A DNA stretch of 24,000 nucleotides from Intestinimonas sp. HCP28S3_D6 (GCF_052065695.1 NZ_JBQHTM010000008.1:1-24000); one strand, 5' to 3'; positions 1,378 through 18,792 are shown, counted from the first letter of the stretch. Notes: generated by a model not told the origin, from the letters alone. Numbers and translations are program-made.

Positions 1378-1381
1378 AAAG

Positions 1382-1418: not shown

Positions 1419-1422
1419 TGCT

Positions 1423-2330: not shown

Positions 2331-2360
2331 CACTTTTTGAGCCAAGCCACCATAGATAAG

Positions 2361-2390
2361 TTACCGCAGAACTATTACCGTCTCCACCTG
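2361..2390 (-). pseudogene. Orphaned native-type 3' terminus of rlmD (QVETVIVLR-stop), displaced by IME insertion.
   Basis: The minus strand reads CAG GTG GAG ACG GTA ATA GTT CTG CGG TAA. It matches the rlmD reading frame at the right junction (CAC GTG GAG ACA GTA ...) over the 15-nt repeat, then ends after 4 more codons. Confidence 0.55.
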
Positions 2391-2434
2391 CTCGAAGCTA
2401 CCTAAAGTCGAAAAGTGCCTGAAATCAAGGGCTT

Positions 2435-4126
2435 TCAAGCGCATTCCACTCCGACCTTTGACATCAATACTACCGTCTCGACTTGTGAATCATTGTCCAA
2501 ACTCAAGCTCATATCTTCTTCAATGATCGGGAGCTTAAATTTGATGGACTTGAGCCACTGTCCGTTGGGTTGACGTTCCTCGTATATCTGGATTTCGGAA
2601 ATCAGCGCTTCCATAATCTGCCGCTTTTCCTGCTCACTCATGACGGCGTATAGCTTATCAAAGTAAATCAGCACCTTGTAAATATTATCTCCGGTGAGCT
2701 TTTCCGCTTCGATTGCCATTTTCTTTGCTCTGGCAGTGATCAGCAGATTTTCCGTATCTTCGATCTTATCATACATCTTGTAAAGCCGATCATCAAGGTC
2801 AGCCTTGCGTTTGTAATAGTGTTTATCGTCTGGGTCAAGGGAATCAATTTCTTCCATCAGCTTTGATTTCACAGCATAATACTGCCGGAGCAGCTTTTCG
2901 TAATTGGCAATCTCCTGCTCAATGGCGACAGTGTCCACCTTCATGTTGATTTTTTCCTGCATCATGGCGGCGAACTTCGGATTGCTGACCAGCTTTACGA
3001 TAACCTCTGCTACTGCACTGTCCAACAGTTCCTCGTGAATCTGCTTTCGATAATCGCACTTGTGCCCACGAATCATAGTGCGGTGCTTGCAGCCATAATA
3101 GAAGAAATCCTTGTACTTTGTTCCATCCTGCTTATGCTTGATGCTCTTGTTACCATACATCCCGGCTCCGCAGATTGGGCATTTGACGATACCCGACAGA
3201 AGATGCACCTTGGTGTCCTTGCCGCGGTTCACATGTTCATACTTTTGAGCCTGTGCCAGCAGTTTCACCTGTGCTTCGTGCCAGAGTTCTTCCGACACGA
3301 TCCCCTCATGCTGGCCATCCACCAGCAGATAATCATCCTGCTCCACAAGCCGGTAATCGTTCCTGGTTCCATGCACCTTCTCCGTTCTGCGTCTGCCATA
3401 GGCGATTTTGCCGCAATAGACAGGATTTTTCAGTATTCTTCGGATCAGAGACGCATCGAACAGCGGATTTTTGCCGTTCTGCCGCTGGATTTTGTGAATA
3501 CCATGCTGGTCAAGATATTTGGCAAGACCATTTGCACCCATGTCGGTATGCACATACTGATCGAAGATCACACGGATTGCATCCGCTTCTTCCTCGTTGA
3601 TGAAAAGCTGGCCATTTTCCAGCTTGTAGCCGTAGGGCGCAAATCCGCCGTTCCATTTGCCCTCACGGGCCTTCTGGATTCTGCCCTCCATTGTCTGAAC
3701 ACGGATGTTTTCTCTCTCGATCTCCGCAACAGCTGACAGAACAGAGATCATCAGCTTTCCGGCATCCTTGGAAGAATCAATCCCATCCTCCACACAAATC
3801 AGATTGACGCCGAAATCCTGCATGACCTGCAAAGTGGACAATACGTCTGCCGCATTTCTGCCGAAGCGGGACAGCTTGAATACCAGCACGAAAGAGACAC
3901 CATCTTTCCCGGATTTTATATCCTCCATCATGCGGTTAAACTCGGCTCTGCCCTCAATGGATTTACCAGACTTACCGGCATCCTCATACTCACCGACTAT
4001 CTCATATTCATTGTACTCGGCAAAGGCTTTCATTCTGGATTTCTGGGCATCCAGAGAGTATCCGTCGATCTGCATGGCGGTGGATACTCTCGTATAGATA
4101 TATACTTTTGTCTTTTCTTTTTTCAT
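2435..4126 (-). CDS. Large serine recombinase (integrase of the IME).
   Basis: N-terminal resolvase domain with VYIYTRVSTAMQ (nucleophile Ser15) and LSRFGRN. Recombinase domain (GGFAPYGYKL). Zinc ribbon (CPICGAGMYG...YYGCKHR...HKC) and a coiled-coil C-terminus. 563 aa. Confidence 0.95.
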   Translation of the reverse strand: MKKEKTKVYIYTRVSTAMQIDGYSLDAQKSRMKAFAEYNEYEIVGEYEDAGKSGKSIEGRAEFNRMMEDIKSGKDGVSFVLVFKLSRFGRNAADVLSTLQVMQDFGVNLICVEDGIDSSKDAGKLMISVLSAVAEIERENIRVQTMEGRIQKAREGKWNGGFAPYGYKLENGQLFINEEEADAIRVIFDQYVHTDMGANGLAKYLDQHGIHKIQRQNGKNPLFDASLIRRILKNPVYCGKIAYGRRRTEKVHGTRNDYRLVEQDDYLLVDGQHEGIVSEELWHEAQVKLLAQAQKYEHVNRGKDTKVHLLSGIVKCPICGAGMYGNKSIKHKQDGTKYKDFFYYGCKHRTMIRGHKCDYRKQIHEELLDSAVAEVIVKLVSNPKFAAMMQEKINMKVDTVAIEQEIANYEKLLRQYYAVKSKLMEEIDSLDPDDKHYYKRKADLDDRLYKMYDKIEDTENLLITARAKKMAIEAEKLTGDNIYKVLIYFDKLYAVMSEQEKRQIMEALISEIQIYEERQPNGQWLKSIKFKLPIIEEDMSLSLDNDSQVETVVLMSKVGVECA

Positions 4127-4221
4127 CTCACAATCCTCATTCGTGCCACAGCTATGGCACCTTTATGTATCCTTACTCCGAAGCTCTTTCAGAGTAAGGT
4201 TTGGACACATTTCACACGATT

Positions 4222-4250
4222 ATTATATCATGCCGTTTTAGCTTTTTCAA
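4222..4250 (-). promoter_or_regulatory. Near-consensus sigma-70-type promoter upstream of the recombinase gene.
   Basis: On the minus strand: TTGAAA (4250-4245), a 17-nt spacer, then TATAAT (4227-4222). It lies about 95 nt upstream of the recombinase ATG (4126). The leader contains hairpins at 4143-4160 and 4171-4199. Confidence 0.5.
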
Positions 4251-4402
4251 TAGTGTCCTCTGGCTGTTCGGGAATATTCGCAGTTCCAGCAGTTTCTTCC
4301 CCAAAACAGTGCGGCGGCTCTGGAAGATTGTCAATGTCCAGAACCGCCGCATATTTTTCTATTAAGTTGGCAAGCAAATCGGCAAAGCCGCTCCACTCAT
4401 CC

Positions 4403-5392
4403 TTATTCCAATCCGCTATAATGGTTTACCTCCTGTTTTTTACTGCCACGCTGTGTGTACGCCCGGATAATCTCCGGAGGGATACGGTCAAGAATCCCTT
4501 TCACCCGTTCATAATCGCTTTGCAGCCTTGCCTCCTGCAACTTCTTGACGGTACTCTGCTGCTGACTCTTTTCCAGCGCTTCCGCTAAATCATCGTTTTT
4601 CTTTTTTAGCGCCTTTTTCTCGGATTCAGCCGTGGTAAAGCACTTCTGATATTTCTTCATCTGCGTTTCCATCGCCGCCACATCTGGGATATATTCCTCC
4701 AGAAATGCTGCGATTTGCGCTGTCCGCTCCTTGTAGTTGGTAAATTTCACATCGGAAAGCATTGCATCCAGCTTTTCCATCTGCTTTGTCAGACGGGTCA
4801 TCTGTTTGAACACTCTCGGCGGGATATGGTCACGGCCCGTCTCGCTGGCACTCTCACCACGCTCCAATACCGGATACTTCTTGACCATGTGTTCCCAGAA
4901 CTTGTCTTGCCACCATGTCAGCTTTTTCTTGTTGCCTACGATCTCCTTGGCGCTGAGCCGCTTGTCCTCTGTCAACGGGACAAAAGAAAGGTGCATATGG
5001 GGCGTTTTCTCGTCCATATGCACCACGGCGGATATAATGGTTTCGGGGGATTGGTTCTGTCGGATAAACTCCAACGCATCATTGAAGAATTCCTTGATCT
5101 CAGCCCGTTTCTTGCCCTTGAAAAATTCCGGACTTGCGGTGATCAGCGCTTCTACCACACGAACACTGTCAGAGCGAGTGCGGCATCCGGCTGCAGCAAT
5201 CTGCCGTTCGGACTCTGCCCGGTACTTTCTTTCCGGCTTAACAAGGTGGAAATTCAAATGACTGCGGCTGGTATCAATATCCGGATTGCTTGCGTACTCT
5301 TCTTTGGTACGCTCATTGTGGGCTTCAATGCGCCCGATCTCCGGCCCCTTATACTTGGCAAATCTCAAAATAGCAAACTGTCCCTTTTCCAT
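4403..5392 (-). CDS. MobV-family (Mob_Pre) relaxase.
   Basis: N-terminus FAILRFAKYKG...IEAHNER and metal motif VVHMDEKTPHMHLSFVPL are typical of Pre/MobV relaxases. The likely start is the ATG at 5392 (MEKGQFAIL); the ORF track extends it to 5416. Confidence 0.9.
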   Translation of the reverse strand: MEKGQFAILRFAKYKGPEIGRIEAHNERTKEEYASNPDIDTSRSHLNFHLVKPERKYRAESERQIAAAGCRTRSDSVRVVEALITASPEFFKGKKRAEIKEFFNDALEFIRQNQSPETIISAVVHMDEKTPHMHLSFVPLTEDKRLSAKEIVGNKKKLTWWQDKFWEHMVKKYPVLERGESASETGRDHIPPRVFKQMTRLTKQMEKLDAMLSDVKFTNYKERTAQIAAFLEEYIPDVAAMETQMKKYQKCFTTAESEKKALKKKNDDLAEALEKSQQQSTVKKLQEARLQSDYERVKGILDRIPPEIIRAYTQRGSKKQEVNHYSGLE

Positions 5393-5479
5393 TATTTTTC
5401 CCGACCTTTCTGCCATACGATGTCATACCGTGGTACGTTTGGTACGGGTGGTACATGTATTTCCGGGTCACTTTCGCTT

Positions 5480-6808
5480 TTATAGAAACGGTCTTTGCAA
5501 AAGCTCAATGCCGACAAAACCTCTGGCGAACTTCCCACCGCCGATATTGACCTTATTTGTGTATTCAAGGTGATAGTGGCTCTCATTCTGTTTGAGGAAG
5601 GAGCAGAAGCGCTTTTGCGAAAGGCTGCTCATGGCGTTATCGTCACACCACAGCTTGTAAACAGCATACAGGGCTTTGGAGCTGACTTCGTAATCTGCCT
5701 TGAAGCGGATATACCCTTCGGAACCTAAAAAATCGATGATGTTGTTGCCGTCCGATACCGCAGCCTCCATGTTGTCCTGCGCCGACTGACTGAGTGTAAA
5801 CCTGTAATCGTTGGCAATCAGGCGGTGCAGGCCCGTGAGTGCCCACAGGAAAATGCCCTCTGCTTCGGCGCACATCTTTTCCGCAATATACGGATCGTCT
5901 CTCCGATTCGGGTCTTTTTCTATGGTGGAAAGGATAATTTGTCTGCGGAAAAAACCCACGCTGTGGTCATTGAGAGATTGCAGGACGCCGTTGCCCAAGC
6001 CGATAAAGCGTACATACAAATCGCCCTGGTAGCTCTGCTGTCCCTTTTTCTCCAGATCCATCGGCAATTCTGCAGTGATGATTGCCTTGATATGATTGGT
6101 CTGGGGCAAGGCTTCCAGCTTCATATCATCGTCCAGCATCACAAGCTCATGTTCCAGATCAGCCCGGGCAAAAGGGCTTGTCTCCACCTTTGCGATACTG
6201 CCTGTGTTCATGTTGCTGCCCAGCAGCGCACGAAGGACAATGCCAATGCGGCTTTTGCCCTCGCCGCCCTTGCCGATCAGCAAAAGCATCTTCTGTCCTT
6301 TGGTGGAGGGAATAAAGCAGTATCCCATAAATTCCTGCAAGGTCAGGATGTCCTCCGGCTCCAAAAGCTGAGACAAAAAATGCAGCCATGTCACTGGCTG
6401 CGGAGCTTCTGGATTGTAGGAAACGGGCAGACGGTTCCGACAGAAATCCTTTTCCGGTCTGAATGTACCGTTCAGATAATAGGTGCCGTTCGCCACATGG
6501 ATGCGGTCTTGATACAGGGGCAACTTTTCGGTGCAGCACTCCATCCGCATGACATCCAACAGATTTGTGACCTTCTTTGCAATGCCACTGGTCACATAAT
6601 ACTTGATGCGGTCATAGATCACCTTTTTCAGGCGGTTTTCATCGTGTACTCTACCATTGACCGTGAAAAATGCTCCGTTTACCGTGACCATTGGATATTC
6701 CCGGAGAAATTCTTCGCAGAATATGGCTTCGTTGATTTTCTTACCGTCAAACCACGCCGGATTTTTACAGTGCGCGGTCTGCGTCATTTCATCGCTCATA
6801 GCGTACAT
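5480..6808 (-). CDS. D5/P4-family primase-associated NTPase (SF3 helicase-like).
   Basis: Walker A MLLLIGKGGEGKSR and Walker B LVMLDDD, with overall length and layout typical of phage/plasmid primase P4-family C-terminal domain proteins. Start at 6808 or 6799, overlapping the upstream gene stop (6789). Confidence 0.85.
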   Translation of the reverse strand: MYAMSDEMTQTAHCKNPAWFDGKKINEAIFCEEFLREYPMVTVNGAFFTVNGRVHDENRLKKVIYDRIKYYVTSGIAKKVTNLLDVMRMECCTEKLPLYQDRIHVANGTYYLNGTFRPEKDFCRNRLPVSYNPEAPQPVTWLHFLSQLLEPEDILTLQEFMGYCFIPSTKGQKMLLLIGKGGEGKSRIGIVLRALLGSNMNTGSIAKVETSPFARADLEHELVMLDDDMKLEALPQTNHIKAIITAELPMDLEKKGQQSYQGDLYVRFIGLGNGVLQSLNDHSVGFFRRQIILSTIEKDPNRRDDPYIAEKMCAEAEGIFLWALTGLHRLIANDYRFTLSQSAQDNMEAAVSDGNNIIDFLGSEGYIRFKADYEVSSKALYAVYKLWCDDNAMSSLSQKRFCSFLKQNESHYHLEYTNKVNIGGGKFARGFVGIELLQRPFL

Positions 6809-7397
6809 ACTCCTCTCTCTTTCTTGCGGTGTAGTCCTGGAGGGACGCAATCTTGCCATCTCTCATCAGCTCATCCACCACAGCAACACGTTCTTCCAAA
6901 TCGCCTACGACCAGAATGTCCGTCAGATATTCGATGCGATCAAGCATCTGGCAGGCTTCCACAAAACGGTCATCCAGATCATCGTCCGGCATTTTCGGGG
7001 CATACCAAACCTTCCAGTCTTCCAACAGATGCAGATAATCCGTCAGCACACGGAAGCAAAGCATTTCGTCCTCCCGGAACTGCCGGATGTGGGGATGTTT
7101 GGGTTTGCGGGGAACTGCCACCGCTTGTCCCTGTTCGGTACTGATACCGAAGTCCTCAGCCAACCTTAGCGCCGCTTCGTAGCTGCTCAGATCAAACAGT
7201 CTCGCCGCAAAGTCAATCACATCTCCCTTGGCTCCGCAGCCGAAACAAAAGAAATATTCCTCGTTCAGCTTCAAGCTCGGATGCCTGTCATTGTGGAACG
7301 GGCAGCAAGCCATGTCGTTGCGGTTGACTTTCAGCCCGTAGTGTTCGGCAGCTTGTCTTACGGGAACTGCCGCCTTGATGGTTTCAAATAGATTCAT
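6789..7397 (-). CDS. CHC2 zinc-finger primase-like protein.
   Basis: CCPFHNDRHPSLKLNEEYFFCFGCGAKGDVIDF is a canonical DnaG-type CHC2 zinc finger. ATG at 7397 lies 7 nt after GGAGG (7409-7405). Confidence 0.85.
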   Translation of the reverse strand: MNLFETIKAAVPVRQAAEHYGLKVNRNDMACCPFHNDRHPSLKLNEEYFFCFGCGAKGDVIDFAARLFDLSSYEAALRLAEDFGISTEQGQAVAVPRKPKHPHIRQFREDEMLCFRVLTDYLHLLEDWKVWYAPKMPDDDLDDRFVEACQMLDRIEYLTDILVVGDLEERVAVVDELMRDGKIASLQDYTARKREEYVRYER

Positions 7398-7565
7398 ATG
7401 CATACCTCCGTAATTAATTTGACAATTCTTGCTTGTCACCTGAATATACGGAGAAAACAGCTTTCAACCGAAAAATCCGGCACTTCTGCAAAAAAAGAAA
7501 TCGCCGCCCTGAATTTTTGCAAAAATGCAAAATACACAGGGTGGCGATTGTTCACAATATGCGCC

Positions 7566-7594
7566 TTGATATTATTCCGAAAATAGAATATAAT
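7566..7594 (+). promoter_or_regulatory. Consensus-like sigma-70-type promoter for the HTH-XRE-sigma module.
   Basis: TTGATA (7566-7571), a 17-nt spacer, then TATAAT (7589-7594), about 25-30 nt upstream of the first gene of the module. Confidence 0.55.
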
Positions 7595-7617
7595 ATTATC
7601 AGATTTAGCGAAAAGGG

Positions 7618-7833
7618 GTGTTGAGGGTGCGTTATTTATCAACTTTTGAGGTGGCGGAGAAATGGGGGATTTCTCCGCGTCGTGTAGGTGTTCTTTGTAG
7701 CCAAAACCGCATCCCCGGCGCACAGCAAGCAGGAAGCCGCTGGATTATCCCAGAAGATGCAGAGAAGCCCGCTGATGCCAGAATCAAAAGCGGCAAATAT
7801 ATCAAAGCAAAAAACAAGGAAAGGGGGACATAA
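7618..7833 (+). CDS. Small HTH DNA-binding protein (excisionase/MerR-like HTH_17 type).
   Basis: YLSTFEVAEKWGISPRRVGVLCSQNRIPGAQQAGSRWIIPEDA is the typical helix-turn-helix of small element-encoded DNA-binding proteins. The start is non-ATG (GTG 7618 or GTG 7627, after AAAGGGG). Confidence 0.7.
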   Translation: MLRVRYLSTFEVAEKWGISPRRVGVLCSQNRIPGAQQAGSRWIIPEDAEKPADARIKSGKYIKAKNKERGT

Positions 7834-7836
7834 CGA

Positions 7837-8682
7837 ATGGAGAATGTATTTTTGCCCGGTACTGTTAGACAGCGGCTTGCCGATCTGATGAAATATCACA
7901 AGGTATCTCAGACTGACCTTGCGCTAAAAATTGGATGCGGCGACAGCTTGCTCAGCCGTTTCCTAACCGGAAAGACAGACAAGATCGGTGACGAAAACAT
8001 CATCCGTATTGCTAGAGTATTCAATGTGTCCACCGACTTTCTTTTAGGCGTGACCAATGTTCCCGATAGAAAAAATTATGAGATTGAAGAGCTGGGCTTG
8101 TCAGCCCAGGCGGCACGAAACCTCTACACCGGCAAGGTTAATACACAAGTGGTCAATCGGCTCTTGGAAAGTCCCCGCTTTGCTGAGCTGACCTACATAT
8201 TGGAGCAGTATTTCAATGACACTATCGCATCCGGCTTTGCAGCTCAGAATCAGCTTTACGCTACCCTTGCCAATCTGACAAGAAGTACCGTACAAACCGA
8301 TGCAGCGAAAGAAGCTGCCAAGGACATCAGCCGTTTACGGACACCGGCATATCAGGCAGATCTCGCCACCATTGAAGCTCAATTTATGGCGGCAGTCAAA
8401 GAAGTGAAGAAAGAGATCGGTCACGATTTTACAGTACAGCAGGCCCTCACCAAAGAAGCCGCCGAGCGAATGTTTACAGAGCTTACAAAAGGTCAGGATA
8501 TGGAAAACCCCAAGGTCACACCGGAGCATGTGACCGAACTGATTATCGACAGCGTTGCCGGTATGGATGGGGTCAACCAAGAAGCACTGGACAAGCTCAG
8601 TCAGGCGTTGACCGACTTTATGCAGACCACCTTGGATCAGGCGGCAATACAGGAGAAGGACGATGAAAAACCAGAGCAATGA
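7837..8682 (+). CDS. XRE-family transcriptional regulator with a long C-terminal helical extension.
   Basis: N-terminal HTH_3 motif: RQRLADLMKYHKVSQTDLALKIGCGDSLLSRFLTGK...IRIARVFNVSTDFLLG. It starts 4 nt after the upstream stop. Confidence 0.85.
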   Translation: MENVFLPGTVRQRLADLMKYHKVSQTDLALKIGCGDSLLSRFLTGKTDKIGDENIIRIARVFNVSTDFLLGVTNVPDRKNYEIEELGLSAQAARNLYTGKVNTQVVNRLLESPRFAELTYILEQYFNDTIASGFAAQNQLYATLANLTRSTVQTDAAKEAAKDISRLRTPAYQADLATIEAQFMAAVKEVKKEIGHDFTVQQALTKEAAERMFTELTKGQDMENPKVTPEHVTELIIDSVAGMDGVNQEALDKLSQALTDFMQTTLDQAAIQEKDDEKPEQ

Positions 8683-9325
8683 GCAACTCTGCACTCTGGC
8701 ACAGAAGGGGAATAGGAACGCCCGTGACCTGCTTCTGGAAAACAATTTCGGCTTTATCCGCAAAACCGCCAACGAGATTTATTTCGGTATGAATCTGGGC
8801 GAAAGCGAACTCAGTATCGACAAAGACGATCTGGAGCAGGAGGGCTGCATCGGCTTATTGGATGCCATCCCTCGCTTTGACAGTAGCAAAGGCGCCAAGT
8901 TTCTGACCTATGCCGCACCGTCCATCCGAAACGCCATGACCGATTTGATACGGAATGCGTTTTCTCAATTTGAGCAGCGAATGACCGACACCACAGATGG
9001 ACTTGCCTTTCAGAAAATCCGTCTGGATGAAGTTGTCCCCGGCGAGGAACGGTTGCTGCGTATCGAAGCGGTTGCCGACCCGATTGCCAAATCGCCGGAA
9101 CAGATTTATGTGGAACAAGAAACATTGCGTGAACTGTATGCGGGACTCGATAGGATTGGAAAGCGAGAGCAAGCCTATCTGCTGTACCGTTTTGGCTTCA
9201 CAGACGATATAGAGCATACGATGATTGGGGCAGCAATCCACTTTAATCTGAGCGAAAGCCGAGCCAAGAAAACCGAGGAACAGGCTATGGACAACCTCTG
9301 GTTAGAGTTGCCGTGGTGGTTTTAG
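8663..9325 (+). CDS. Sigma-70 family RNA polymerase sigma factor (element-encoded).
   Basis: Region 2-like EQEGCIGLLDAIPRFDSSKGAKFLTYAAPSIRNAMTD and region 4-like REQAYLLYRFGF...AAIHFNLSESRAKKTEEQAMDNL. It overlaps the XRE gene by 20 nt. Confidence 0.85.
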   Translation: MKNQSNEQLCTLAQKGNRNARDLLLENNFGFIRKTANEIYFGMNLGESELSIDKDDLEQEGCIGLLDAIPRFDSSKGAKFLTYAAPSIRNAMTDLIRNAFSQFEQRMTDTTDGLAFQKIRLDEVVPGEERLLRIEAVADPIAKSPEQIYVEQETLRELYAGLDRIGKREQAYLLYRFGFTDDIEHTMIGAAIHFNLSESRAKKTEEQAMDNLWLELPWWF

Positions 9326-9758: not shown

Positions 9759-9801
9759 CTGACAATCTGAATATTAATATGGTGCAATTTCAGATTGTCA
9801 G
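9759..9801. promoter_or_regulatory. Perfect 13-bp inverted repeat at the upstream edge of the AT-rich cargo (operator or boundary candidate).
   Basis: CTGACAATCTGAA (9759-9771) and TTCAGATTGTCAG (9789-9801), separated by 17 nt (TATTAATATGGTGCAAT). The right arm contains TTGTCA (9795-9800), 18 nt before TATTTA (9819-9824). Confidence 0.4.
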
Positions 9802-9868
9802 ATACTATTTCAACGATTTATTTATGCTTAACCATATGCGAATGCGGTCAGAAAGGAATCAGAAAAAT

Positions 9869-10520
9869 TATGGAATGGATAACCAAGTTAATTGATCTTC
9901 TAAAGGTACCATTAAAAGTTCTTTTACCCTCGGCATGGCTTTTTTCATCCGCCATGACCTTATTTCCTGACAGATGGCTTGAAAAATTAGGTTTACTAGA
10001 GTGGAAAAATGAGCACCTGTTTGCTTTTGGATTAATACTTATTATCACCTCCTGCCTGATCCTGGTGTATTCATTTATTTATACGAAATCAAAAATTACT
10101 CATCTTATTTCCAAACTTTTCTTGAACAGAAATACTATGAAAAAATTTTCAAGTATGAGTGATGTTGAAAAAGCAATTATTCTCAAACTTTACCACTCGC
10201 CCGCATTTACTTGCGAACTTGACTATGGGCAGCCTGTAATAAAAGGCCTTGTTGCACGCAATTACTTATATGGTGGTGGTCAGCAATTAGTTCGAACATC
10301 CTTATATTCAACAGCGTTACCGGTAAAACTTACGCTCCAACCATTTGTTTATCAGGCACTGGATTATTACAAAGAAAAGCTATCACGAGAAATTGAAAAA
10401 ACAGAAAAAAAGATCGCTAAAACGAAAAGAGAATCAAAACTAAGCAAATTGAATTATAAACTTTATGAGCTGAAAGATTGCTATGAAGCATATTTCGACG
10501 AAAACTTGTTTAAGGAATAA
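9869..10520 (+). CDS. Membrane protein resembling superinfection-exclusion protein B (SieB-like).
   Basis: Two hydrophobic segments (VLLPSAWLFSSAMTLFP and LFAFGLILIITSCLILVYSFIY). A cytoplasmic domain follows with the ...SDVEKAIILKLYHSPAFTCELDYGQPVIKGLVARNYLY pattern, then a Lys/Glu-rich helix. This layout matches my recollection of the SieB family. ATG at 9869 is preferred over the track start at 9795. Confidence 0.6.
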
Positions 10521-10563
10521 CTCTCAAACGTAAATGCTAATAGGCGATTAATGGGGGGTAATT

Positions 10564-13500
10564 ATGGATAAAGCCACTTCAACTGAAATTATCACAACAT
10601 ACTTTAAAGCTGTATGCGACGCATACCGTCTCGGAAATGTTGAGTCATCTTATAACGCACCAATAATGGCTCTGTTCACAGATATTGGATGTGCTGCCCG
10701 TGATTTGTCTGGTGAGCGTAAAGGTCAAACCGGAGAAAATATTGATATTAAACTGTGGCACAGCGAGGAAGAAGTTACAGAAACTGAACCGTTTGCTGGC
10801 GTTGAAGTTAAAAAAGTTGGAGGCATTGACAAGAGAGCCCTCTCCCAGATCAAAATCGAAGCTGATCGGTATGGCAATGCTATTTTAACTGATAATCTTG
10901 AATGGCGTTTTTGGCGTGCTGGTGATACGGAGATGTATACCGGTTTGCGAATTATGGAATTGGTTAATGACAAACTGGTTCTAAGAGAAGATAACGTCGA
11001 GCTGTTTATTAGCCTCGTAGAAGATTTTCTGCTTCGTGATCCTGCACAAATAAAATCATCCACCAAGCTTGCTGAATATATGGCAATGCATGCTCGCACA
11101 ATACGCAGCATAATTTCTGGTATTCTTAAAGATGACGGCAATGGACAACCTCTTGTCACTGACAGTCAAAAGAGACTACCTATGTTTATAGAATTATATG
11201 GGCTATATAGCAGGATTAAATCTGACCTCCGGCCTCTCATGAACACTCGTGAATTTGCTGATATGTATGCCCAGACCATTGTCTATGGTTTATTTATCGC
11301 AAGATACAATGACACAACACCGGACTCCTTTGACAGATATGAGGCCATAAAATATCTGCAAGAAGAATCCGAACTCCTCAAACAGTTCTTCATGCATATT
11401 GCCGGAACCGGCAGAAAACACCCTACCCTTGAAGGCGTTATTGAAAAGTTGTGTTCTTTGTACCGTATTTGTAATATTTCTGCTTTGCTGGAGCGAGATG
11501 AGAAGAAGGATACGATTATCCATTTTTATGAAGAATTTCTGACTTTCTATGATCCGGCATTAAGAAAATCGCTTGGCGTTTTTTATACACCAGTTCAAGC
11601 CGTACAATATTTAGTTTCAACTGTAGATAAGATTTTGGTTGAAGATTTCGGTATTGAAGGGGGACTCTCGAATAACGAACTAATCACAACGAAAGTTCCG
11701 TGTGCACCATACAAAGTAACAAAGACCAAGTGGTCCAGCGAAATGACAGTTTCTGTACCCCGTGTAGCTATTCTCGATCCAGCCTGCGGCACTGGTTCGT
11801 TTGGTGCAGAGATCATCAAATATATTAAAAATACATATTTTTCTGGCGCTCGGTCAGCATTTTATGAAAACTACATTCAGCAGGAAAACGGCTTGCTTTC
11901 CCGCTTAATTGGTTTTGAGATTATGATGACCAGTTATGTTGTTGCGCACTTAAAAATTCGTCGCACAATTGATGAAACGCTCGGTCATTTGCCAACAGTT
12001 CAGCTCCCCACAAACATTTTTTTGACAAACACCCTGGCACCACCCATGTCGGATTTGGAGCGAGGTGAACAGTTGACTTTGTTTGATTTCTCTGCTGCCA
12101 TTACTGAGGAAGCCTACAACGCAGATACATGGAAAGCCCGTCGCCCCATCAAGGTAATCATCGGTAATCCTCCATATCTGGCGGCATCTACAAATCCATA
12201 TGATATTTCGGCATACAAAACTGAAACGGATGGTGTGACTGATTTTGGTGAAAGAAAGCACTGGCTGAATGATGATTATGTAAAATTTTTCCGTTTCTCC
12301 GAACAGATCATCGATAAGAACAAAGAAGGTGTGCTTGCCTTTGTATCCAATAACGGATACTTAGACAATCCGACCTTTAGGGGTATGCGTGGCAGCCTTC
12401 TGAGATCCTTTGATAAAATCTATATCGTAAATCTTCACGGCAGCGCAAATAAAAAGGAAACCGCTCCCGACGGAAGCAGGGATGAAAATATCTTTGATAT
12501 TATGCAAGGTGTATCTTTGTTCATCGGAGTCAAAAAAACAAAGAAAACAGATTGGGCAAAAGTATACTATACGGATATTTGGGGAACCCGGGAAACCAAA
12601 CTGGAGGCCCTTGCCAAAGGCGATCTGACATTCACTCTGTTGAAGCTGGATCATAAGATGGCGTACTTTATTCCTTTCGGAAATAGCGACAAAGATGCCT
12701 ATGATAAAGGGGTTAGTATTGCAGAACTGTTTCCGATAAGTGTGACAGGAATTGTTTCTGGCAACGATAGTGTAGCCATTGCACCTACAAAAGCCGAATT
12801 AATTAGACGGATGGATATTGTTAAGCATGCCACAGAAGAAAAAGATATATTCAATCTATGGGGGAGATTCAGCCGTGGACAAACAGCAGAAAAGATCCAA
12901 AATGATGTCCTATCAGAAGGCAAAATAACTCAGATTTCTTTCCGCCCGTTTGATTCTCGATGGACATATTATTCTGGCAATTCCTGCGGATGGGTTCTTT
13001 GGCCCAGAGAAAAGAGCACCATGGGGCATTTGCTGGCCGAACCGACGAGCCCTATTGGAGCCAATATTGGTTTGGTATTCTGCAAAACCTCCAGAAACTT
13101 CTTTTCTCCGTTTGTGTCCAGGAATATCATCGCACATCGGCTGTTCTCTGCTATGTGCGAGATCACCTACATCGCACCACTTTATCTTCGTTCAGAGTCG
13201 GAACTGACTGGCGAAAGCTGGACTGCAAATTTGAACGATGATGCATTTAATAAATTAACCCAGTATTTGCCTACAAAGCCCACACCAATTGAGGTGTTTG
13301 ACTATGTGTACGGCATTCTGCACGATCCGGTTTACTGCGAGAAATACGAGCAGTATCTTTGCAGAGATTTTCCACGTGTTCCGGTCATCAATGAGCCAGA
13401 GGAAGAAAGAACCGACGGTACATTTTTCGTAAGTGAAGATTTGTATAGAGAATATGTTGTTACCGGCGAACGGCTTAGAAAACTGCATCTTATGCAAATC

Positions 13501-13797
13501 AAGGTGCCTGCCGAGCTTATGTTAGATCCTAACACACCTGATGATATGGAAATCGGAGCCGTTAAATACAAAAACGGTGTGCTTCAGTTAAACGCCAACA
13601 AACACATTACCGGTATTTCTCAGGATGTATGGCAATACCAAATTGGCGGACATCAGGTGTTGGACAAGTGGTTTAAGGAACATAAGGGCGAAACACTCAC
13701 TATTGATTCCTTTACTCACATTGAAAATGTGGTGGGATTGCTTGCGGAGACAATCAACTTGCGAGAACATATGCGAAGTTTGCACAAGCAAATTTAA
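10564..13797 (+). CDS. Type IIG/PglX-like N6-adenine DNA methyltransferase with a putative N-terminal PD-(D/E)xK nuclease domain and a type-ISP-like C-terminal specificity domain.
   Basis: MmeI-like N-terminal pattern: D61 (NIDIKLW), E81-x-K83 (GVEVKKVG), then QIKIEADRYG and ILTDNLEWRFWR. Motif X is FYEEFLTFYDPALRKSLGVFYTP. SAM motif I is DPACGTGSF (nt 11776-11802). Catalytic NPPY is at nt 12166-12177. C-terminal hallmarks are FRPFDSRWTYY, VFDYVYGILHDPVYCEKYEQYLCRDFPRVP and WQYQIGGHQVLDKWFKEHKG. No helicase motifs. Confidence 0.85.
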   Translation: MDKATSTEIITTYFKAVCDAYRLGNVESSYNAPIMALFTDIGCAARDLSGERKGQTGENIDIKLWHSEEEVTETEPFAGVEVKKVGGIDKRALSQIKIEADRYGNAILTDNLEWRFWRAGDTEMYTGLRIMELVNDKLVLREDNVELFISLVEDFLLRDPAQIKSSTKLAEYMAMHARTIRSIISGILKDDGNGQPLVTDSQKRLPMFIELYGLYSRIKSDLRPLMNTREFADMYAQTIVYGLFIARYNDTTPDSFDRYEAIKYLQEESELLKQFFMHIAGTGRKHPTLEGVIEKLCSLYRICNISALLERDEKKDTIIHFYEEFLTFYDPALRKSLGVFYTPVQAVQYLVSTVDKILVEDFGIEGGLSNNELITTKVPCAPYKVTKTKWSSEMTVSVPRVAILDPACGTGSFGAEIIKYIKNTYFSGARSAFYENYIQQENGLLSRLIGFEIMMTSYVVAHLKIRRTIDETLGHLPTVQLPTNIFLTNTLAPPMSDLERGEQLTLFDFSAAITEEAYNADTWKARRPIKVIIGNPPYLAASTNPYDISAYKTETDGVTDFGERKHWLNDDYVKFFRFSEQIIDKNKEGVLAFVSNNGYLDNPTFRGMRGSLLRSFDKIYIVNLHGSANKKETAPDGSRDENIFDIMQGVSLFIGVKKTKKTDWAKVYYTDIWGTRETKLEALAKGDLTFTLLKLDHKMAYFIPFGNSDKDAYDKGVSIAELFPISVTGIVSGNDSVAIAPTKAELIRRMDIVKHATEEKDIFNLWGRFSRGQTAEKIQNDVLSEGKITQISFRPFDSRWTYYSGNSCGWVLWPREKSTMGHLLAEPTSPIGANIGLVFCKTSRNFFSPFVSRNIIAHRLFSAMCEITYIAPLYLRSESELTGESWTANLNDDAFNKLTQYLPTKPTPIEVFDYVYGILHDPVYCEKYEQYLCRDFPRVPVINEPEEERTDGTFFVSEDLYREYVVTGERLRKLHLMQIKVPAELMLDPNTPDDMEIGAVKYKNGVLQLNANKHITGISQDVWQYQIGGHQVLDKWFKEHKGETLTIDSFTHIENVVGLLAETINLREHMRSLHKQI

Positions 13798-13812
13798 AAA
13801 AACGGGGGAAAC

Positions 13813-15000
13813 ATGGATAAGATAATTAAAATTCCAGTGGATACAGGAAAGGTTGTAATTTCAGAAGATATAAAGTCCATACTCAAGAATTTGTTTTCCG
13901 GATGCAGAGTAAGTTTCCTGCTTGGTGCTGGCTTTTCTGCAAATCTGTTAGGCACTTTGAGTAATAATGAGGTAATTTTTGAAGCATTACAAAAATATCA
14001 AGTCAAAAATGAAGATGAACGAAAAAAGATCACTATTCTATCTGCATTTTTGTATTGGTCGTTCTTCATTAGATGTATCGAACCGATCTCCTCCAAAGTA
14101 TCGACATATGATCCCTCATTTGCCCCTTACAAAGAATTTGGAGATATTGTGTACCGGATTTTTGCCGAAAGAGGAAATCCAGCATTGGATCGACAGTTCA
14201 ACATCTTTACAACAAATTACGACCCAATAATTGAGCTGATCTTTGACCATTCAACCTGTATATGCAATGATGGCTTTGAAGGGAGAATTGAACCTCGATT
14301 TTCCACCGATAACTACTCAAAAACGTATTATAGGCAAGCAGTATTCTCCAACAGGAAAGCTGAAATCCCATCTGTGAATCTTTTAAAGTTGCACGGGTCT
14401 GTTACTTGGAGCACAGACATCATTTGGGGAGGTATTGAGTATCAGCAATATCGAACCCAAATACATCACTTTACCAAAGAGCACTCTACATTGTTTGATG
14501 TAGCTATGGTATCAAGAATTGATGCTCATTTTACGGCTGATCAACCGGATGAAGCAAATAAACAAATTCAATCTTTGCTTGCGAGTACTATTTTTGATTC
14601 ATTACTTGCCAAAGAGGGAGACTATGACAAATTCATTCAATCGTACAAAAATTCCTTCCTAATTGTGAACCCAACAAAGGAAAAATTCAGTGATACCCTA
14701 TTAAACAAAAATTATTATGAGCTTCTGCGCATTTTCTCCAATGAGTTGGAAAAAGAGAACTCACTTCTAGTAGTCAATGGTTTTTCTTTTAGAGATGAGC
14801 ACATCCTTGATGTAGTAAAACGCTCCATGGTTAATCCATCCTTGAAAATACTCATTTTCACATATCAAGAAACAGCGATTGGGGACTTTCAAAAACTATT
14901 CGGTGAGGCGAAGAATAATAACATTACTTATATTACGCTGGATGGAGAAAAGCTGTCTTTGGATTATTTCAATCAGATTTTGTCACATATCCATTCCTAA
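13813..15000 (+). CDS. SIR2-family (SIR2_2-type) putative NAD+ hydrolase, partner of HerA.
   Basis: FLLGAGFS (aa 35-42), TTNYD (aa 133-137), LLKLHGSVTWS (His194) and VVNGFSFRDEHI. It starts 15 nt after the methyltransferase stop, preceded by GGGGG. Confidence 0.85.
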   Translation: MDKIIKIPVDTGKVVISEDIKSILKNLFSGCRVSFLLGAGFSANLLGTLSNNEVIFEALQKYQVKNEDERKKITILSAFLYWSFFIRCIEPISSKVSTYDPSFAPYKEFGDIVYRIFAERGNPALDRQFNIFTTNYDPIIELIFDHSTCICNDGFEGRIEPRFSTDNYSKTYYRQAVFSNRKAEIPSVNLLKLHGSVTWSTDIIWGGIEYQQYRTQIHHFTKEHSTLFDVAMVSRIDAHFTADQPDEANKQIQSLLASTIFDSLLAKEGDYDKFIQSYKNSFLIVNPTKEKFSDTLLNKNYYELLRIFSNELEKENSLLVVNGFSFRDEHILDVVKRSMVNPSLKILIFTYQETAIGDFQKLFGEAKNNNITYITLDGEKLSLDYFNQILSHIHS

Positions 15001-15020
15001 AAGGAAAGAGGTGAATCGGT

Positions 15021-16847
15021 ATGAACGATTTTTATAAAATCGGACAAGTGATTGAGGTACGAGGTCAAAAACTTCGCATACGTGTTTTTGAAAACAAGAA
15101 CAGCAATATTCTGATATACCAGGGACACGTTATTAAAAATGTGTCCGTCGGCAGCTTCGTGAAGATTCCAAAAGGATTCAGCAACATCATTGGCCGCATA
15201 GAGGGTGAATACATCCAAGAAACTAAGCCCACAGGTGAGAACAATGGTCAACTTCGTTTTTCAAAAGAGAGCGAGACCATTGATCGCATTATCGAAGTTA
15301 GCATTATGGGTGTGTTGAATGATGGACGTTTTCAGAGAGGTCTCATTGACATTCCGCTGGTTTTCTCCGATGCATATATGCTTACAGACATAGAAGTGCA
15401 AAAGATTTTCGAGTTTAGCTCCGATTTAAGCACTTCTGTGTGTATTGGCTCTATTAACGATTACAAAGAAGAAAAGCTTTTCATCTCGGCAAATTCTCTT
15501 TTTGCCAGTCATATAGGAATCTTCGGAAATACCGGAAGTGGCAAATCAAATACATTGGCCAAGATATACACCGAGTGCTTTCAACGTTTTAAAGGAATGC
15601 CTGGATTCGCTAAAAGCAGATTTCTTCTTATCGATTTTAATGGAGAGTACACCCAAGCCTTTGATGACAGCAAACGAGTATATCGACTTTCAACAAGAGT
15701 TGATACAGGAGATTCAATCCCTATTCATCAATCGTTTTTGGAAGATGTGGAACTCTGGTCAATAATATGTGAGGCAACAGAAAAAACTCAGAAGCCTTTC
15801 TTAAGCAAGAGCATTGACTTATACCGCCGTTTGCGTGAGACTGACAATCTTATGGCCTATATTCGCGGGATGTTACGGAATCTGCTTCTCCGATACTATG
15901 ATGACCCTCAAATATTCTTGCGTCAACTAACAGGACTTAAGACGATTCTTACATTGCTATTTGTTGATGCCGAACCTGGAATCAGAATTTTAAATAGCAT
16001 CCAACTTCGTGCGCAGGGTACAAAATTCTACCGTACATCTGCTGAGGGTGAGCACTGGGCAAACAGCCTCGATGACTACGAACAACAATTTGTATCTGCT
16101 ATTTTGGATTCAGTGTTTATTCCGGCTAATTGCAAAGATCCGGATGAATATATGATATTTGAGTATGCTCTACGGTATAAATACTTGGATTCTTTGTGTT
16201 TGCAATATATCAACGAAGAACACGTTGGCCCACTGATCTCAAGATTTGAAAATCGTGTAAAACGAGTAAAGCGCCTTTTCAGAATATGCGAGAACCCCCC
16301 ATCTGATTGGTTAGCGGTATATTCATTGGTTGATGTTAATGTAGAATTCAAAAAGATTGTACCTTTAATTATCTGTAAGTATTTCTATGAACGCCAACGG
16401 CAGAATTTCAATGGTAGTAGTCTACATATTATCATTGATGAAGCACATAATGTCTTGTCCACGACATCTGAACGAGAAAGCCAGACATGGAAAGATTACC
16501 GCTTAGAAACTTTCGAGGAAATTATCAAAGAGGGACGAAAATTCGGAACATTCTTAACTATATCGAGCCAGCGTCCCTCTGACATCTCGGAAACCATTAT
16601 TTCTCAACTACATAACTATTTTATTCATAGATTGGTTAACAATGAAGATATACGGGCAATAGGTAAAGCTGTGGCATTCATTGACAATACTTCATATGAA
16701 ATGATCTCGGTACTCCCGCAAGGAGCATGTATCTTTACTGGTGTCGCTTCCAATTTTCCTGTTTTGGTGCAGGTCGATTTGCTACCCAAACAAAAGCAAC
16801 CACAGAGTAGCACCATAAATCTTACAGAGTTATGGAAAGAACCTTAA
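15021..16847 (+). CDS. HerA-like (DUF87/FtsK-HerA superfamily) ATPase.
   Basis: N-terminal barrel-like IGQVIEVRGQKLRIRV...GSFVKIP. Walker A GNTGSGKS (aa 169-176). Walker B HIIIDEAH (aa 469-476). Then EGRKFGTFLTISSQRPSDIS...LHNYFIHRL. It starts 20 nt after the SIR2 stop, preceded by GAGGTG. Confidence 0.9.
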   Translation: MNDFYKIGQVIEVRGQKLRIRVFENKNSNILIYQGHVIKNVSVGSFVKIPKGFSNIIGRIEGEYIQETKPTGENNGQLRFSKESETIDRIIEVSIMGVLNDGRFQRGLIDIPLVFSDAYMLTDIEVQKIFEFSSDLSTSVCIGSINDYKEEKLFISANSLFASHIGIFGNTGSGKSNTLAKIYTECFQRFKGMPGFAKSRFLLIDFNGEYTQAFDDSKRVYRLSTRVDTGDSIPIHQSFLEDVELWSIICEATEKTQKPFLSKSIDLYRRLRETDNLMAYIRGMLRNLLLRYYDDPQIFLRQLTGLKTILTLLFVDAEPGIRILNSIQLRAQGTKFYRTSAEGEHWANSLDDYEQQFVSAILDSVFIPANCKDPDEYMIFEYALRYKYLDSLCLQYINEEHVGPLISRFENRVKRVKRLFRICENPPSDWLAVYSLVDVNVEFKKIVPLIICKYFYERQRQNFNGSSLHIIIDEAHNVLSTTSERESQTWKDYRLETFEEIIKEGRKFGTFLTISSQRPSDISETIISQLHNYFIHRLVNNEDIRAIGKAVAFIDNTSYEMISVLPQGACIFTGVASNFPVLVQVDLLPKQKQPQSSTINLTELWKEP

Positions 16848-16850
16848 AAC

Positions 16851-16886
16851 CAGAGCCCACCGATCATTGTTGACCAGTGGGCTCTG
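16851..16886. terminator. Hairpin between the convergent herA and a small minus-strand gene.
   Basis: CAGAGCCCAC (16851-16860) pairs perfectly with GTGGGCTCTG (16877-16886), with a 16-nt loop. It starts 3 nt after the herA stop. The T-run is weak on the plus side; TTTT follows on the minus side. Confidence 0.45.
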
Positions 16887-16898
16887 CCATATTAATTT

Positions 16899-17144
16899 TC
16901 AATCCATCAACCGATACTCTGGTGTGCCTTTCACATACCGTTCCAAGTCGCCGCCAAGAACCAGTTGCGCATATTCCAGAGGTTTATTATAGATCAGCCA
17001 GTCCAGCTCTGACCGCTGATACATATTGTCGGCAACCTCGTTCTCCACGGCGATCGTATCAATGGTAATCATGCTGCCATCGGTAAATTTCAGTTCAACA
17101 CAGGCAGTATCCATATTGAACTCACAGGAAAACAAGCGCTCCAT
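16899..17144 (-). CDS. Small conserved hypothetical protein (81 aa) at the IME right end.
   Basis: ATG at 17144 (MERLFSCEFNMDTACVELKF...) follows GAGGTGG (17156-17150), which overlaps the stop of the rlmD tail ORF. I recall this sequence as a recurrent small protein of clostridial elements, but cannot name the family with certainty. Confidence 0.65.
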   Translation of the reverse strand: MERLFSCEFNMDTACVELKFTDGSMITIDTIAVENEVADNMYQRSELDWLIYNKPLEYAQLVLGGDLERYVKGTPEYRLMD

Positions 17145-17154
17145 ATTCGCCACC

Positions 17155-18777
17155 TCAAATCATCCCGAAGTGCTTTAATGCCTCCATAATCGCCTTTTCC
17201 TTCTCTGGCGGGCATTGGGGCTGCTTAGATTCCTCAGACTTCGGCTTGTTGTAATTCTCCCGCTCAATAATGCCGCATTTCTGCTTCACCTGTGCGATAT
17301 ACAAATTGCTTACCTTCAAACCACTATGTTCCAGTACATAATCTTTGATCTCTTGATAGGTAGCCTTTTTCTCCGCAGCCGTCAAATCCAGCTCATCCAT
17401 ATCCAGCTCAACTTCGATATGCTGCGTCGATTTTAGTTTGGACAATAAGCATACTGTCTCCACGTGGGCGGTGCGGGGGAACATGTCCACCGCCACGGCG
17501 GTCTGGGCGGCGTAGCCCAGCTCCGCAAATCGGGCCAGGTCTCGGGCCAGGGTGGCCGGGTCGCAGGAGACGTAGACCACCCGCTCGGGGGCCATCTGGG
17601 CGATGGAGGCCACCACCTCCGGGGCCAGGCCCTTCCGGGGCGGGTCCACGCAGATGACGTCCGGCCGCAGACCCTCGGCGGCCAGCCGGGCGGCGGTGTC
17701 GGCGGCGTCGCCGCAGAAGAACTCGGCGTTGGTGATGCCGTTGCGCATGGCGTTGGCCTTGGCATCCTCCACGGCGGAGGGGACGATCTCCGCCCCGATG
17801 ACCCGCCCGGCGTGGCGAGCCATGGCCAGGGAGATGGTGCCGATGCCGCAGTAGAGGTCCACCACCGTCTCGGTGCCGGTAAGCCTTGCCAGCTCCACTG
17901 CCTTGCCGTAGAGGACCTCGCACTGGTCCCGGTTCACCTGGTAGAAGGAGGGCACCGAGATGCGGAAGGTGAGGCCGCAGAGGGTGTCCTCCAGAAAGTC
18001 CTGCCCCCACAGGGTGCGCAGCTCTTTGCCCAGCACCACGTTAGTCCGCTCCTTATTCACGGACAGCACCACCCCGGCCAGCTCCGGGGCGGCGGACCGG
18101 AGGGCCTCCACCAACTCCCGCTCGTGGGGCAGCCGGTCCCCGTTGACCACCAGGCAGCACAGGGCCTGGGTCCGGGAAAAGCGGACGAAGAGATGGCGCA
18201 CCAGTCCGGCGTGGGCCTTCTCGTCATAGGCGGGGACGGCATACTCCGCCATCCACCGCCGGACGGCGTGGGCCAGGGAGGAGGCGGTCTCCGGCTGGAG
18301 GAGGCAGTCGTCCACGTTCACCACATCGTGGCTCCGGGCCCGGAAGAAGCCGATCTTGGGCCCGTCCTTCCCCGCGGCCACCGGCAGCTGCACCTTATTT
18401 CGATAACGCTGTGTATTTTCCGCCCCCAATATCACAGAAACCGCCAGGTCCAGACCCCCTACCCGGCGGATGGCGTCCTCCACCCGGCGGCGCTTGGCCT
18501 CCAGCTCGGCGGGGTAGCTCATGTGCCGGAACTGGCAGCCGCCGCACCTGGGGTACTGGGGACAGTCGGGGTCGATGCGGTCCGGGGAGGGCGTCCTGAC
18601 CCCCGCCGCCTTGCCCCAGATGGCGGAGCGGCCCACCTTTAAAATGAGGGTGTCGCACACCTCGCCGGGGAGGCCGCCGGAGACAAAGACCACCTGGCCG
18701 TCCAGATGGGCGATGCCCTCACCGTTGAGACCGATGGACTCGATGGTCAGGGGCAGAATGTCATTTTTCTTGGGCAT
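17155..18777 (-). CDS. rlmD: 23S rRNA (uracil-C5)-methyltransferase, RlmD/RumA family. The last ~100 codons are supplied by the IME.
   Basis: TRAM-like N-terminus, Cys cluster CPQYPRCGGCQFRH, SAM-binding VVDLYCGIGTISLA and VYVSCDPATLARD. ATG at 18777 lies 7 nt after GAGGTG. Codon usage switches from GC3-rich to AT-rich at about 17460. Confidence 0.9.
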   Translation of the reverse strand: MPKKNDILPLTIESIGLNGEGIAHLDGQVVFVSGGLPGEVCDTLILKVGRSAIWGKAAGVRTPSPDRIDPDCPQYPRCGGCQFRHMSYPAELEAKRRRVEDAIRRVGGLDLAVSVILGAENTQRYRNKVQLPVAAGKDGPKIGFFRARSHDVVNVDDCLLQPETASSLAHAVRRWMAEYAVPAYDEKAHAGLVRHLFVRFSRTQALCCLVVNGDRLPHERELVEALRSAAPELAGVVLSVNKERTNVVLGKELRTLWGQDFLEDTLCGLTFRISVPSFYQVNRDQCEVLYGKAVELARLTGTETVVDLYCGIGTISLAMARHAGRVIGAEIVPSAVEDAKANAMRNGITNAEFFCGDAADTAARLAAEGLRPDVICVDPPRKGLAPEVVASIAQMAPERVVYVSCDPATLARDLARFAELGYAAQTAVAVDMFPRTAHVETVCLLSKLKSTQHIEVELDMDELDLTAAEKKATYQEIKDYVLEHSGLKVSNLYIAQVKQKCGIIERENYNKPKSEESKQPQCPPEKEKAIMEALKHFGMI

Positions 18778-18792
18778 GGGGGAACACCTCAT

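Follow-up and report, generated by a model that had tools for sequence, protein, structure and literature searches.

Where does the mobile element that interrupts the 3′ end of rlmD (rumA) in Intestinimonas sp. HCP28S3_D6 begin and end? The window analysed here is the first 24 kb of contig C8 of this genome (G000), and all coordinates are counted from its first base. A first-pass annotation had recognised an integrative mobilizable element (IME) of ~15 kb, with a large serine recombinase, interrupting rlmD at the codons for HVETV, and had set its ends at the two copies of a 15-nt imperfect direct repeat, at 2376-2390 and 17461-17475. The element, its size and its position in rlmD were confirmed by the present analysis, as was the repeat itself, but the left junction had been misplaced by ~95 nt onto a decoy copy. 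Window 2478-17458 (~14,981 bp) is, with high confidence, an IME in the 3′ end of rlmD. The evidence below demonstrates where it begins and ends, with the shared core as the limit of resolution, and also the in-frame fusions at its ends and the tandem array in which it stands.

The repeat has three copies

The left copy of the repeat, TACCGTCTCCACCTG, was located at 2376-2390 (+), as annotated, and the right copy, TACTGTCTCCACGTG, at 17452-17466 (+), which is 9 nt to the left of the annotated 17461-17475. The two copies are identical at 13/15 positions with the common core GTCTCCAC, and on the minus strand they read in frame as QVETV (2376-2390) and HVETV (17452-17466), the left copy running on as IVLR and a stop. 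Searching the window with the 15-mer and allowing <=3 mismatches gave three matches, all on one strand, where 0.32 are expected by chance, indicating that the repeat exceeds chance. The third match, TACCGTCTCGACTTG at 2471-2485 (+), had been missed by the first-pass annotation; it codes for QVETV within the 3′ end of the recombinase open reading frame (ORF) and matches at 12/15 positions, slightly below the 13/15 of the copy at 2376-2390.

The right copy joins the element to the host rlmD

The features at the right end are as follows.

17461..18792, minus strand: host rlmD (rumA) 5′ part, residues 1 to ~450, ending ...DMFPRTAHV(E) (TIGR00479 rumA, 4e-123)
17452..17466, plus strand: right copy of the 15-mer, the attL core (rlmD to IME), with the probable crossover GA (minus strand) at 17459-17460
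17155..17458, minus strand: start-less tail ORF fused in frame to rlmD (from translation, with homologous tails in other rlmD elements)

Base composition changes sharply at this copy, from a GC fraction of 0.44-0.46 to one of 0.67-0.70 in the rlmD part, which also matches Pfam tRNA_U5-meth_tr and TRAM. Over the whole of 1-17450 the GC fraction is 0.33-0.56, and host-like values (0.60-0.71) are found only from ~17455. A corresponding step was sought at 2376 and none was found, low GC (0.35-0.55, against 0.65 for the host) continuing to the contig start, and there is therefore no host DNA to the left of either the 2376-2390 or the 2471-2485 copy. The rlmD frame runs from 18792 down to ...DMFPRTAHVETV and then on through 98 element-encoded residues, CLLSKLKSTQHIEV...HFGMI, to a stop. 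The part that follows RlmD ...HVE begins TVCLLSKLKSTQHIEV, and the tail has 98 residues past ...VETV (CLLSKLKSTQ...HFGMI), 93 of them beyond the shared CLLSK.

The host gene was compared with rlmD from 40 relatives. Its DNA is 86-92% identical to that of G013, G007 and G003, and the homology stops at 17453 with G007, G003 and G011 and at 17437 with G013, where it extends further because the natural rlmD tail of that genome resembles the right end of the IME. G013, whose RlmD is 95% identical, carries an uninterrupted rlmD that ends HVETVCLLSKGA and a stop, followed by GC-rich DNA (GC 0.66). In L101, L102 and L105, from other hosts, this right end (TGY YTN TTGTCCAAACTRAAATC...) adjoins three different rlmD genes, in three independent insertions that diverge upstream of CAY GTG GAR ACR GTA. 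In the window, host homology and element homology both break within CAC GTG GAG ACA GTA. The points at which homology to the relatives stops, together with the right ends of L101, L102 and L105, confirm the right junction; the right copy as the junction with rlmD, borne out by four related genomes, thus stands once its coordinates are shifted.

The left end of the element lies inside the recombinase gene

The features at the left end are as follows.

2480..4126, minus strand: large serine recombinase, element-encoded part (codons 1 to ~549, ...SLDNDSQV; domain matches)
2471..2485, plus strand: true left core copy, the attR core (recombinase to neighbour), with the probable crossover GA at 2478-2479
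2435..2477, minus strand: borrowed end of the recombinase ORF (..TV VLMSKVGVECA and a stop), which is the neighbour's rlmD-replacement tail

The whole recombinase ORF of 563 aa matches PF00239 (Resolvase, 2e-38), PF07508 (Recombinase, 5e-19) and PF13408 (Zn_ribbon_recom, 9e-12). Its catalytic domain matches PDB 3guv at 1e-88, and the other PDB matches are large serine recombinase structures, including A118 and SprA. A scan of genome contigs for this recombinase returned 303 relatives, and the comparison below uses 80 loci at 83-97% identity. The homologues are conserved, in 80/80 cases, to ...SLDN(D/E)x(Q/H)VETV, and then continue into unrelated tails and stops. Some of these tails are short host-type RlmD ends (CLLEKE, VRLERDR or ALLERMEKE, each followed by a stop) with host-like DNA after them; others are long and come from a second element that stands in tandem. 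At the DNA level, similarity to the window breaks off at 2453-2490, mostly at 2469-2472, and no match to window 1-2452 was found among the 80 homologues. In two sister IMEs from other hosts (G043 and G044), ~93% identity to the window extends over 2455/2469-7399, and the right end is shared as well. The breakpoints of the homologues and of the sister IMEs show that the recombinase gene has no stop of its own and that the element ends inside the VETV codons at 2471-2485. The recombinase gene had been placed 45 nt inside the left repeat; its stop (2435-2437) does lie 45 nt from 2390, but the last 12 sense codons and the stop are beyond the crossover and do not belong to the element.

The copy at 2376-2390 belongs to a neighbouring element

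The DNA to the left of 2477, in which the original rlmD stop was believed to be preserved, is the end of another rlmD-targeting element, and the end of a third element lies at the start of the contig.

730..2477, minus strand: remnant of a second, decayed rlmD-targeting element (homologous blocks in L107-L113)
2376..2390, plus strand: left copy of the first-pass annotation, an internal, non-junction core in the terminal block of the neighbour (no inverted-repeat arm)
1..118, plus strand: end of a third element, in which a DUF4368-type serine recombinase gene reaches its 3′ terminus (stop ~27) and ~90 nt follow

The remnant consists of a short tail, a repeat-rich spacer, ORF275 (1423-2250, minus strand) and a recombinase fragment at ~790-1377 (plus strand) that has the zinc-ribbon and coiled-coil part only, without a catalytic domain. 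Unrelated metagenomes contain blocks homologous to it at 80-90% that are joined to rlmD. L113 has 90% identity to window 2486 to 1298, and there the block continues an rlmD as ...FPHTEHVETV/VLMSRVEGK and a stop (slash, joint); the borrowed end of the recombinase ORF is homologous to this same fusion in L113, L109 and L111. L107 and L108 align with 2429 to 1269 without interruption across 2376-2390, where their homologous bases (AAGGCCGCGTGGATAATCGC) lack the core, and L109-L112 align with 2371 to 730. L110 has the core and the tail though no rlmD lies upstream, which argues that the VETV core is the end of the neighbour unit. Homologues of ORF275 lie directly downstream of rlmD in the metagenomic contigs L107, L109 and L111-L113; in the intact version of the neighbour (L109-L112) the ORF275 homologue is followed by two convergent serine recombinase genes, SHOCT, lysin and holin. 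In this genome the copy at 2376-2390 lies within the neighbour and marks no junction. The possibility that the 95 nt separating the two left copies are a nearly deleted third element was ruled out by L113, in which tail, spacer and ORF275 are contiguous and fused to rlmD.

The origin of the internal copy can be read in more than one way. It may be a non-functional scar of an older tandem insertion, either a relic att core or a captured rlmD 3′ end, that became part of the neighbour's terminal block, and we consider this a real possibility, at somewhat less than even chances. A real att core is found 95 nt away; the copy agrees with it in strand and frame and shares 12 identical nucleotides with the rlmD core (GTGGAGACGGTA), and matches of this kind are rare by chance, as the window-wide search showed. 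At the homologous position L107 and L108 hold a degenerate version (~11/20), the strong homology to L109-L112 resumes exactly at 2371, beside the copy, and tandem arrays are the rule at the rumA site, both in the loci compared here and in PMC4120198. However, in L109-L113, further members of the neighbour family, this position is taken up by an unrelated spacer, and of the residues ahead of the core only ..EQ looks like the end of a recombinase. The copy could also have come about by chance or through gene conversion by the core next to it.

It is much less probable that the IME and the neighbour remnant, perhaps with the third element, form one larger composite mobile unit whose distal att site would be found past the start of the contig. 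Elements in tandem at rumA have been described, recombination between the outermost sites of such an array is possible in principle (PMC4120198, PMC4701971), and the array here does reach the contig start, leaving its distal end outside the window. Yet the neighbour's own recombinase lacks a catalytic domain, no part of window 1-2452 is found alongside any of the 80 homologues, and the sister IMEs have other neighbours and other hosts, indicating that the 15-kb unit moves alone.

The original model, an IME of ~15.1 kb running from 2376-2390 to the right copy with IVLR and its stop as the natural end of the host rlmD, is largely refuted and has next to no probability left: its two copies agree slightly better (13/15, same strand, in frame) than the copy at 2471-2485 does, but the recombinase-family homology ends 80-95 nt to the right of 2376-2390, the left flank consists of mobile-element genes with no composition step at 2376, the blocks of L107, L108 and L113 run uninterrupted across the copy, its symmetry with the right end is near background (see below), and the closest empty site, in G013, ends CLLSKGA and a stop, not IVLR, with only the 12-nt core of 2361-2390 matching it.

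The array was followed to the left and sought elsewhere in the assembly. Contig C150, which overlaps the contig start by 66 nt, is the 3′ end of a serine recombinase gene and continues the DUF4368-type gene of the third element. Diverged copies (94-96%) are present in two other contigs (C37:25665-26282 and C57:11972-12585), making the path to the left of the contig start ambiguous, and they probably explain the assembly break. The DNA and proteins that follow rlmD in G013 were sought in G000 by blastn and tblastn and were not found. A fuzzy search for host-type tails and a genome-wide peptide scan for ends of the forms ..FPxTxHVETV and ..LDNDxQVETV returned only the two junctions in the window. 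As no further ends were found, the displaced 3′ end of the host rlmD is not in the assembly.

The joined ends form a symmetric attP

Each end of the IME carries one arm of an inverted repeat.

17435..17446, plus strand: right inverted-repeat arm AGTTTGGACAAT (attP P′ arm; TTGTCCAAACT is conserved in L101, L102 and L105)
2492..2503, plus strand: left inverted-repeat arm ATTGTCCAAACT (attP P arm), in recombinase codons S-L-D-N

Joining the junction flanks at the GA of the Glu codon gives the attP AGTTTGGACAAT-N9-GTC-GA-GAC-N9-ATTGTCCAAACT, which has a perfect 12-bp inverted repeat and an inner 3-bp repeat, with each arm exactly 12 nt from the central GA. Across the 80 homologues the DNA of the S-L-D-N arm hardly varies. 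When each left copy was scored for symmetry with the right arm, 18/30 positions (12 contiguous) agreed for the copy at 2471-2485 and 11/30 for that at 2376-2390, compared with a window-wide null of 7.5 ± 2.4 in which a value of >=18 was reached by only 5/47,940 30-mers. The IME accordingly has imperfect terminal inverted repeats of ~30 bp (18/30, with GTC/GAC beside the centre), and these pair the right end with 2471-2485. From the symmetry of attP, and by analogy with published rumA elements, the crossover is probably at the GA of the Glu codon; its placement at 2478-2479 and 17459-17460 gives an element of 14,981 bp. The fusions at the two ends are precise, in frame and reciprocal, and the same ends were seen in four hosts.

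Several points weigh against the exact placement of the ends and the history suggested for them. The natural tail of G013, TGCCTTTTGTCCAAA, resembles the right end of the IME, TGCTTATTGTCCAAA; taken on its own, this resemblance would allow a right boundary as much as 15 nt deeper in the element. GAGAC and GTA are all that the two junctions have in common, and the crossover may instead lie in GTA; when attL and attR were compared between the window, G043 and G044, variation in the core was seen on either side. In addition, the distal end of the array and the displaced rlmD 3′ end lie outside the assembly, which allows more than one order of insertion.

The following mechanism is proposed for an element with a crossover at the GA. 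The recombinase would pair the ~48-bp symmetric attP with the rlmD site and exchange strands at the GA of the Glu codon. Alternatively, the partner site may have been a hybrid of rlmD and the neighbour's tail, keeping the B′-like half GACGGTAGTATTGATGTCAAAGG; the neighbour would have occupied the rlmD site first, or may have arrived together with the IME. Because attP lies inside the recombinase gene, integration swaps the 3′ ends of the two genes in frame: RlmD would gain the start-less tail of the element, and the recombinase ORF would leave the element and end in whatever adjoins it. On excision a circle would form again, with the recombinase ORF reading through into the long tail. The predicted joint of the circle is ...TTGGACAATGATTCACAAGTCGA/GACAGTATGCTTATTGTCCAAACT... 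(core of the joint ...GATTCACAAGTCGA/GACAGTATGCTTATTGTCC...), and the predicted empty-site product is ...GCCCACGTGGA/GACGGTAGTATTGATGTCAAAGGTCGGAGTGGAATGCGCTTGA, with RlmD ending VETVVLMSKVGVECA and a stop (...HVETVVLMSKVGVECA and a stop). Transfer would take place in trans, by a co-resident conjugative helper acting through the Mob_Pre relaxase.

Backbone and cargo of the IME

Between the recombinase and the tail ORF the element carries the following genes, with anti-phage defence functions in the cargo.

4403..5416, minus strand: Mob_Pre (MOBV) relaxase (PF01076, 8e-52)
5480..7439, minus strand: primase-helicase module, a D5_N/DUF5906 protein and a CHC2 zinc-finger protein (Pfam matches)
7837..9325, plus strand: helix-turn-helix (XRE-type) regulator and sigma-70-family factor (Pfam HTH_3, Sigma70_r2)
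9795..16847, plus strand: variable cargo, beginning with a SieB-like protein (Pfam matches)
10564-13797, plus strand: type IIG/ISP-like methyltransferase, within the cargo (Pfam match)
13813-15000, plus strand: SIR2, within the cargo (Pfam match)
15021-16847, plus strand: HerA, within the cargo (Pfam match)
16899..17153, minus strand: DUF6061 gene, directly downstream of the tail ORF (PF19537, 1e-39)

No VirB4 or coupling-protein family, as would mark mating-pore (type IV secretion) genes, was found among the 20 ORFs scanned, and the sole TrwB-like match is weak (2e-5) and lies inside HerA, the partner of SIR2. The element thus combines an integration module and a relaxase with no type IV secretion genes, and IME is therefore the right label. 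An Rfam scan of the window at the gathering threshold gave no match. The two sister IMEs, fetched whole (L115 in G043 and L116 in G044), have a backbone ~93% identical to that of the window, with the primase-helicase stretch at 92-94%, and the right end in common, and their cargo is entirely different.

When window 7400-16900 was compared with L115 and L116, the defence island looked like an exchangeable cassette. L115 and L116 also have ~560 additional bases at the point that matches window 5426/5427.

Relation to published rumA elements

The IME belongs to an already published architecture, and every testable defining feature of the rumA elements was found in it. The vanG elements and ICE-r of S. 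agalactiae, S. anginosus, E. faecalis and Roseburia intestinalis (Srinivasan et al. 2014, PMC4120198) insert in a GAG codon, after its GA, which is the duplicated target; this codon is the 11th counted from the 3′ end of rumA. Their recombinase gene of ~547-549 codons spans one end of the element and has no stop, start-less ORFs of 101-115 codons are fused in frame to the rumA 5′ part, imperfect inverted repeats of 28-30 bp are present, and tandem arrays occur, including in Roseburia (PMC4120198). The IME resembles them in its use of the Glu codon of an H-V-E motif, in the probable GA, in the stop-less recombinase and the start-less tail, and in the inverted repeats and the array. In the empty site of G013, however, the Glu is the 10th sense codon from the end, versus the 11th in vanG/ICE-r. 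Whereas vanG/ICE-r are conjugative, measure at least 45 kb and carry vanG or other resistance genes, the IME is 15 kb, mobilizable, with Mob_Pre and no mating-pore genes, carries defence cargo (SIR2-HerA and the type IIG-like methyltransferase), and has a GC-rich gut Clostridia host.

Streptococcal integrative and conjugative elements (ICEs) have been described in which rumA and the gene for a single serine integrase each carry a copy of a direct repeat and exchange their 3′ ends reciprocally (Ambroset et al. 2016, PMC4701971), and IMEs with serine integrases in rumA, family Ser_4, are also known (Coluzzi et al. 2017, PMC5357655). Together with the CTn5 of C. difficile re-inserted in rumA, these streptococcal ICEs and IMEs resemble the present element: short direct repeats are present in rumA at one end and inside the integrase gene at the other, the integrase differs at its C-terminus between the excised and the integrated state, and IME versions occur. 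In the account of Ambroset et al. (PMC4701971) the exchange alters the reading frame of both proteins, whereas here both fusions are in frame through VETV.

The large serine integrases of phages (A118, phiC31, Bxb1 and SPbeta SprA) have, like that of the IME, a resolvase domain, a recombinase domain and a zinc ribbon, a symmetric attP of ~50 bp with a non-palindromic central dinucleotide, and insertion inside a host gene. In these phages, unlike in the IME, attP is placed outside the integrase ORF. For the IME, no recombination directionality factor was identified. In myxophage Mx8 attP lies within int, as in the IME, and integration replaces the C-terminus of Int with a reported lowering of activity (cited in PMC4701971), but Mx8 Int is a tyrosine recombinase and there is no reciprocal in-frame fusion with a target gene.

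The tail carried on RlmD

Homologous tails of 97-111 aa were found at the ends of other rlmD elements. An alignment of eight sequences (A1; 32-63% identity, at least three sequence types) has 22 invariant positions, and the tail is conserved across different element lineages. It gave no Pfam match at E up to 10 and no NCBIfam match. An AlphaFold model of the tail has three helices at moderate confidence (pLDDT 64), and Foldseek of this model against PDB gave no significant match, the best being a DNA-binding region of the LacI type in CcpA (E = 1.6), a mere hint.

The in-frame swap of tails could conceivably be a regulatory switch for the recombinase, although we think this unlikely. The recombinase would then bear the ~95-110-aa three-helix tail only in the excised circle, and in the chromosome the tail would be parked on RlmD while the recombinase bears a short borrowed one; the long tail could modulate attP x attB versus attL x attR activity, or DNA binding. 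If this were true, directionality would be controlled without a classical directionality factor. That two forms of an integrase may differ in function is a general idea of Ambroset et al. (PMC4701971), to which the present evidence adds a tail family conserved across recombinase lineages.

Significance of the corrected boundaries

The corrected boundaries provide attP (~48 bp), attL and attR for a recombinase lineage widespread in gut Clostridia, whose 303 relatives span Oscillospiraceae, Lachnospiraceae, Faecalibacterium, Blautia and Butyricicoccus. They also define a 15-kb vehicle in which a ~93% conserved backbone is kept and the cargo, here SIR2-HerA and the type IIG-like methyltransferase, is swapped. 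The 3′ end of rlmD is an accretion hotspot, with at least three elements stacked in this window, and as a consequence annotation pipelines can be expected to mis-call the C-termini of RlmD and of the recombinase. For the delimitation of such elements, the nearest direct repeat can be a decoy.

Further observations on neighbouring and related DNA

ORF275 (275 aa, 1423-2250, minus strand) belongs to a large uncharacterised family, with 235 matches at E <=1e-3 and no Pfam match, whose members are typically the gene next to rlmD, where they form the end of a prophage-like element that also has paired serine recombinases, SHOCT, a lysin and a holin. Upstream of it, at 2246-2325, there are three iteron-like direct repeats ((T)GACATCTAATCC twice and GACATCTATCTC once). 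L107-L113 have conserved repeats of a similar kind (GATTAGATGTCA, GATAGATGTCA), and L067 and L100 have motifs like them downstream of the recombinase. These repeats may be binding sites for a regulator or a recombinase accessory protein at the end of the neighbour family.

In one of the relatives compared above, G003 (L007), rlmD ends VVRLYKLNGR and a stop, followed by HIRVEQSLH..., which looks like a decayed long element tail (KLNTKQHIEVELNLDE...) and is possibly the scar of a lost element. Towards the contig start, a small ORF of no known family at 258-818 (MQNNDNQKTYFIYV...) runs into the recombinase fragment (~730-1377, plus strand), and homology to the intact L109-type recombinase stops at ~730, in what looks like a deletion or rearrangement joint.

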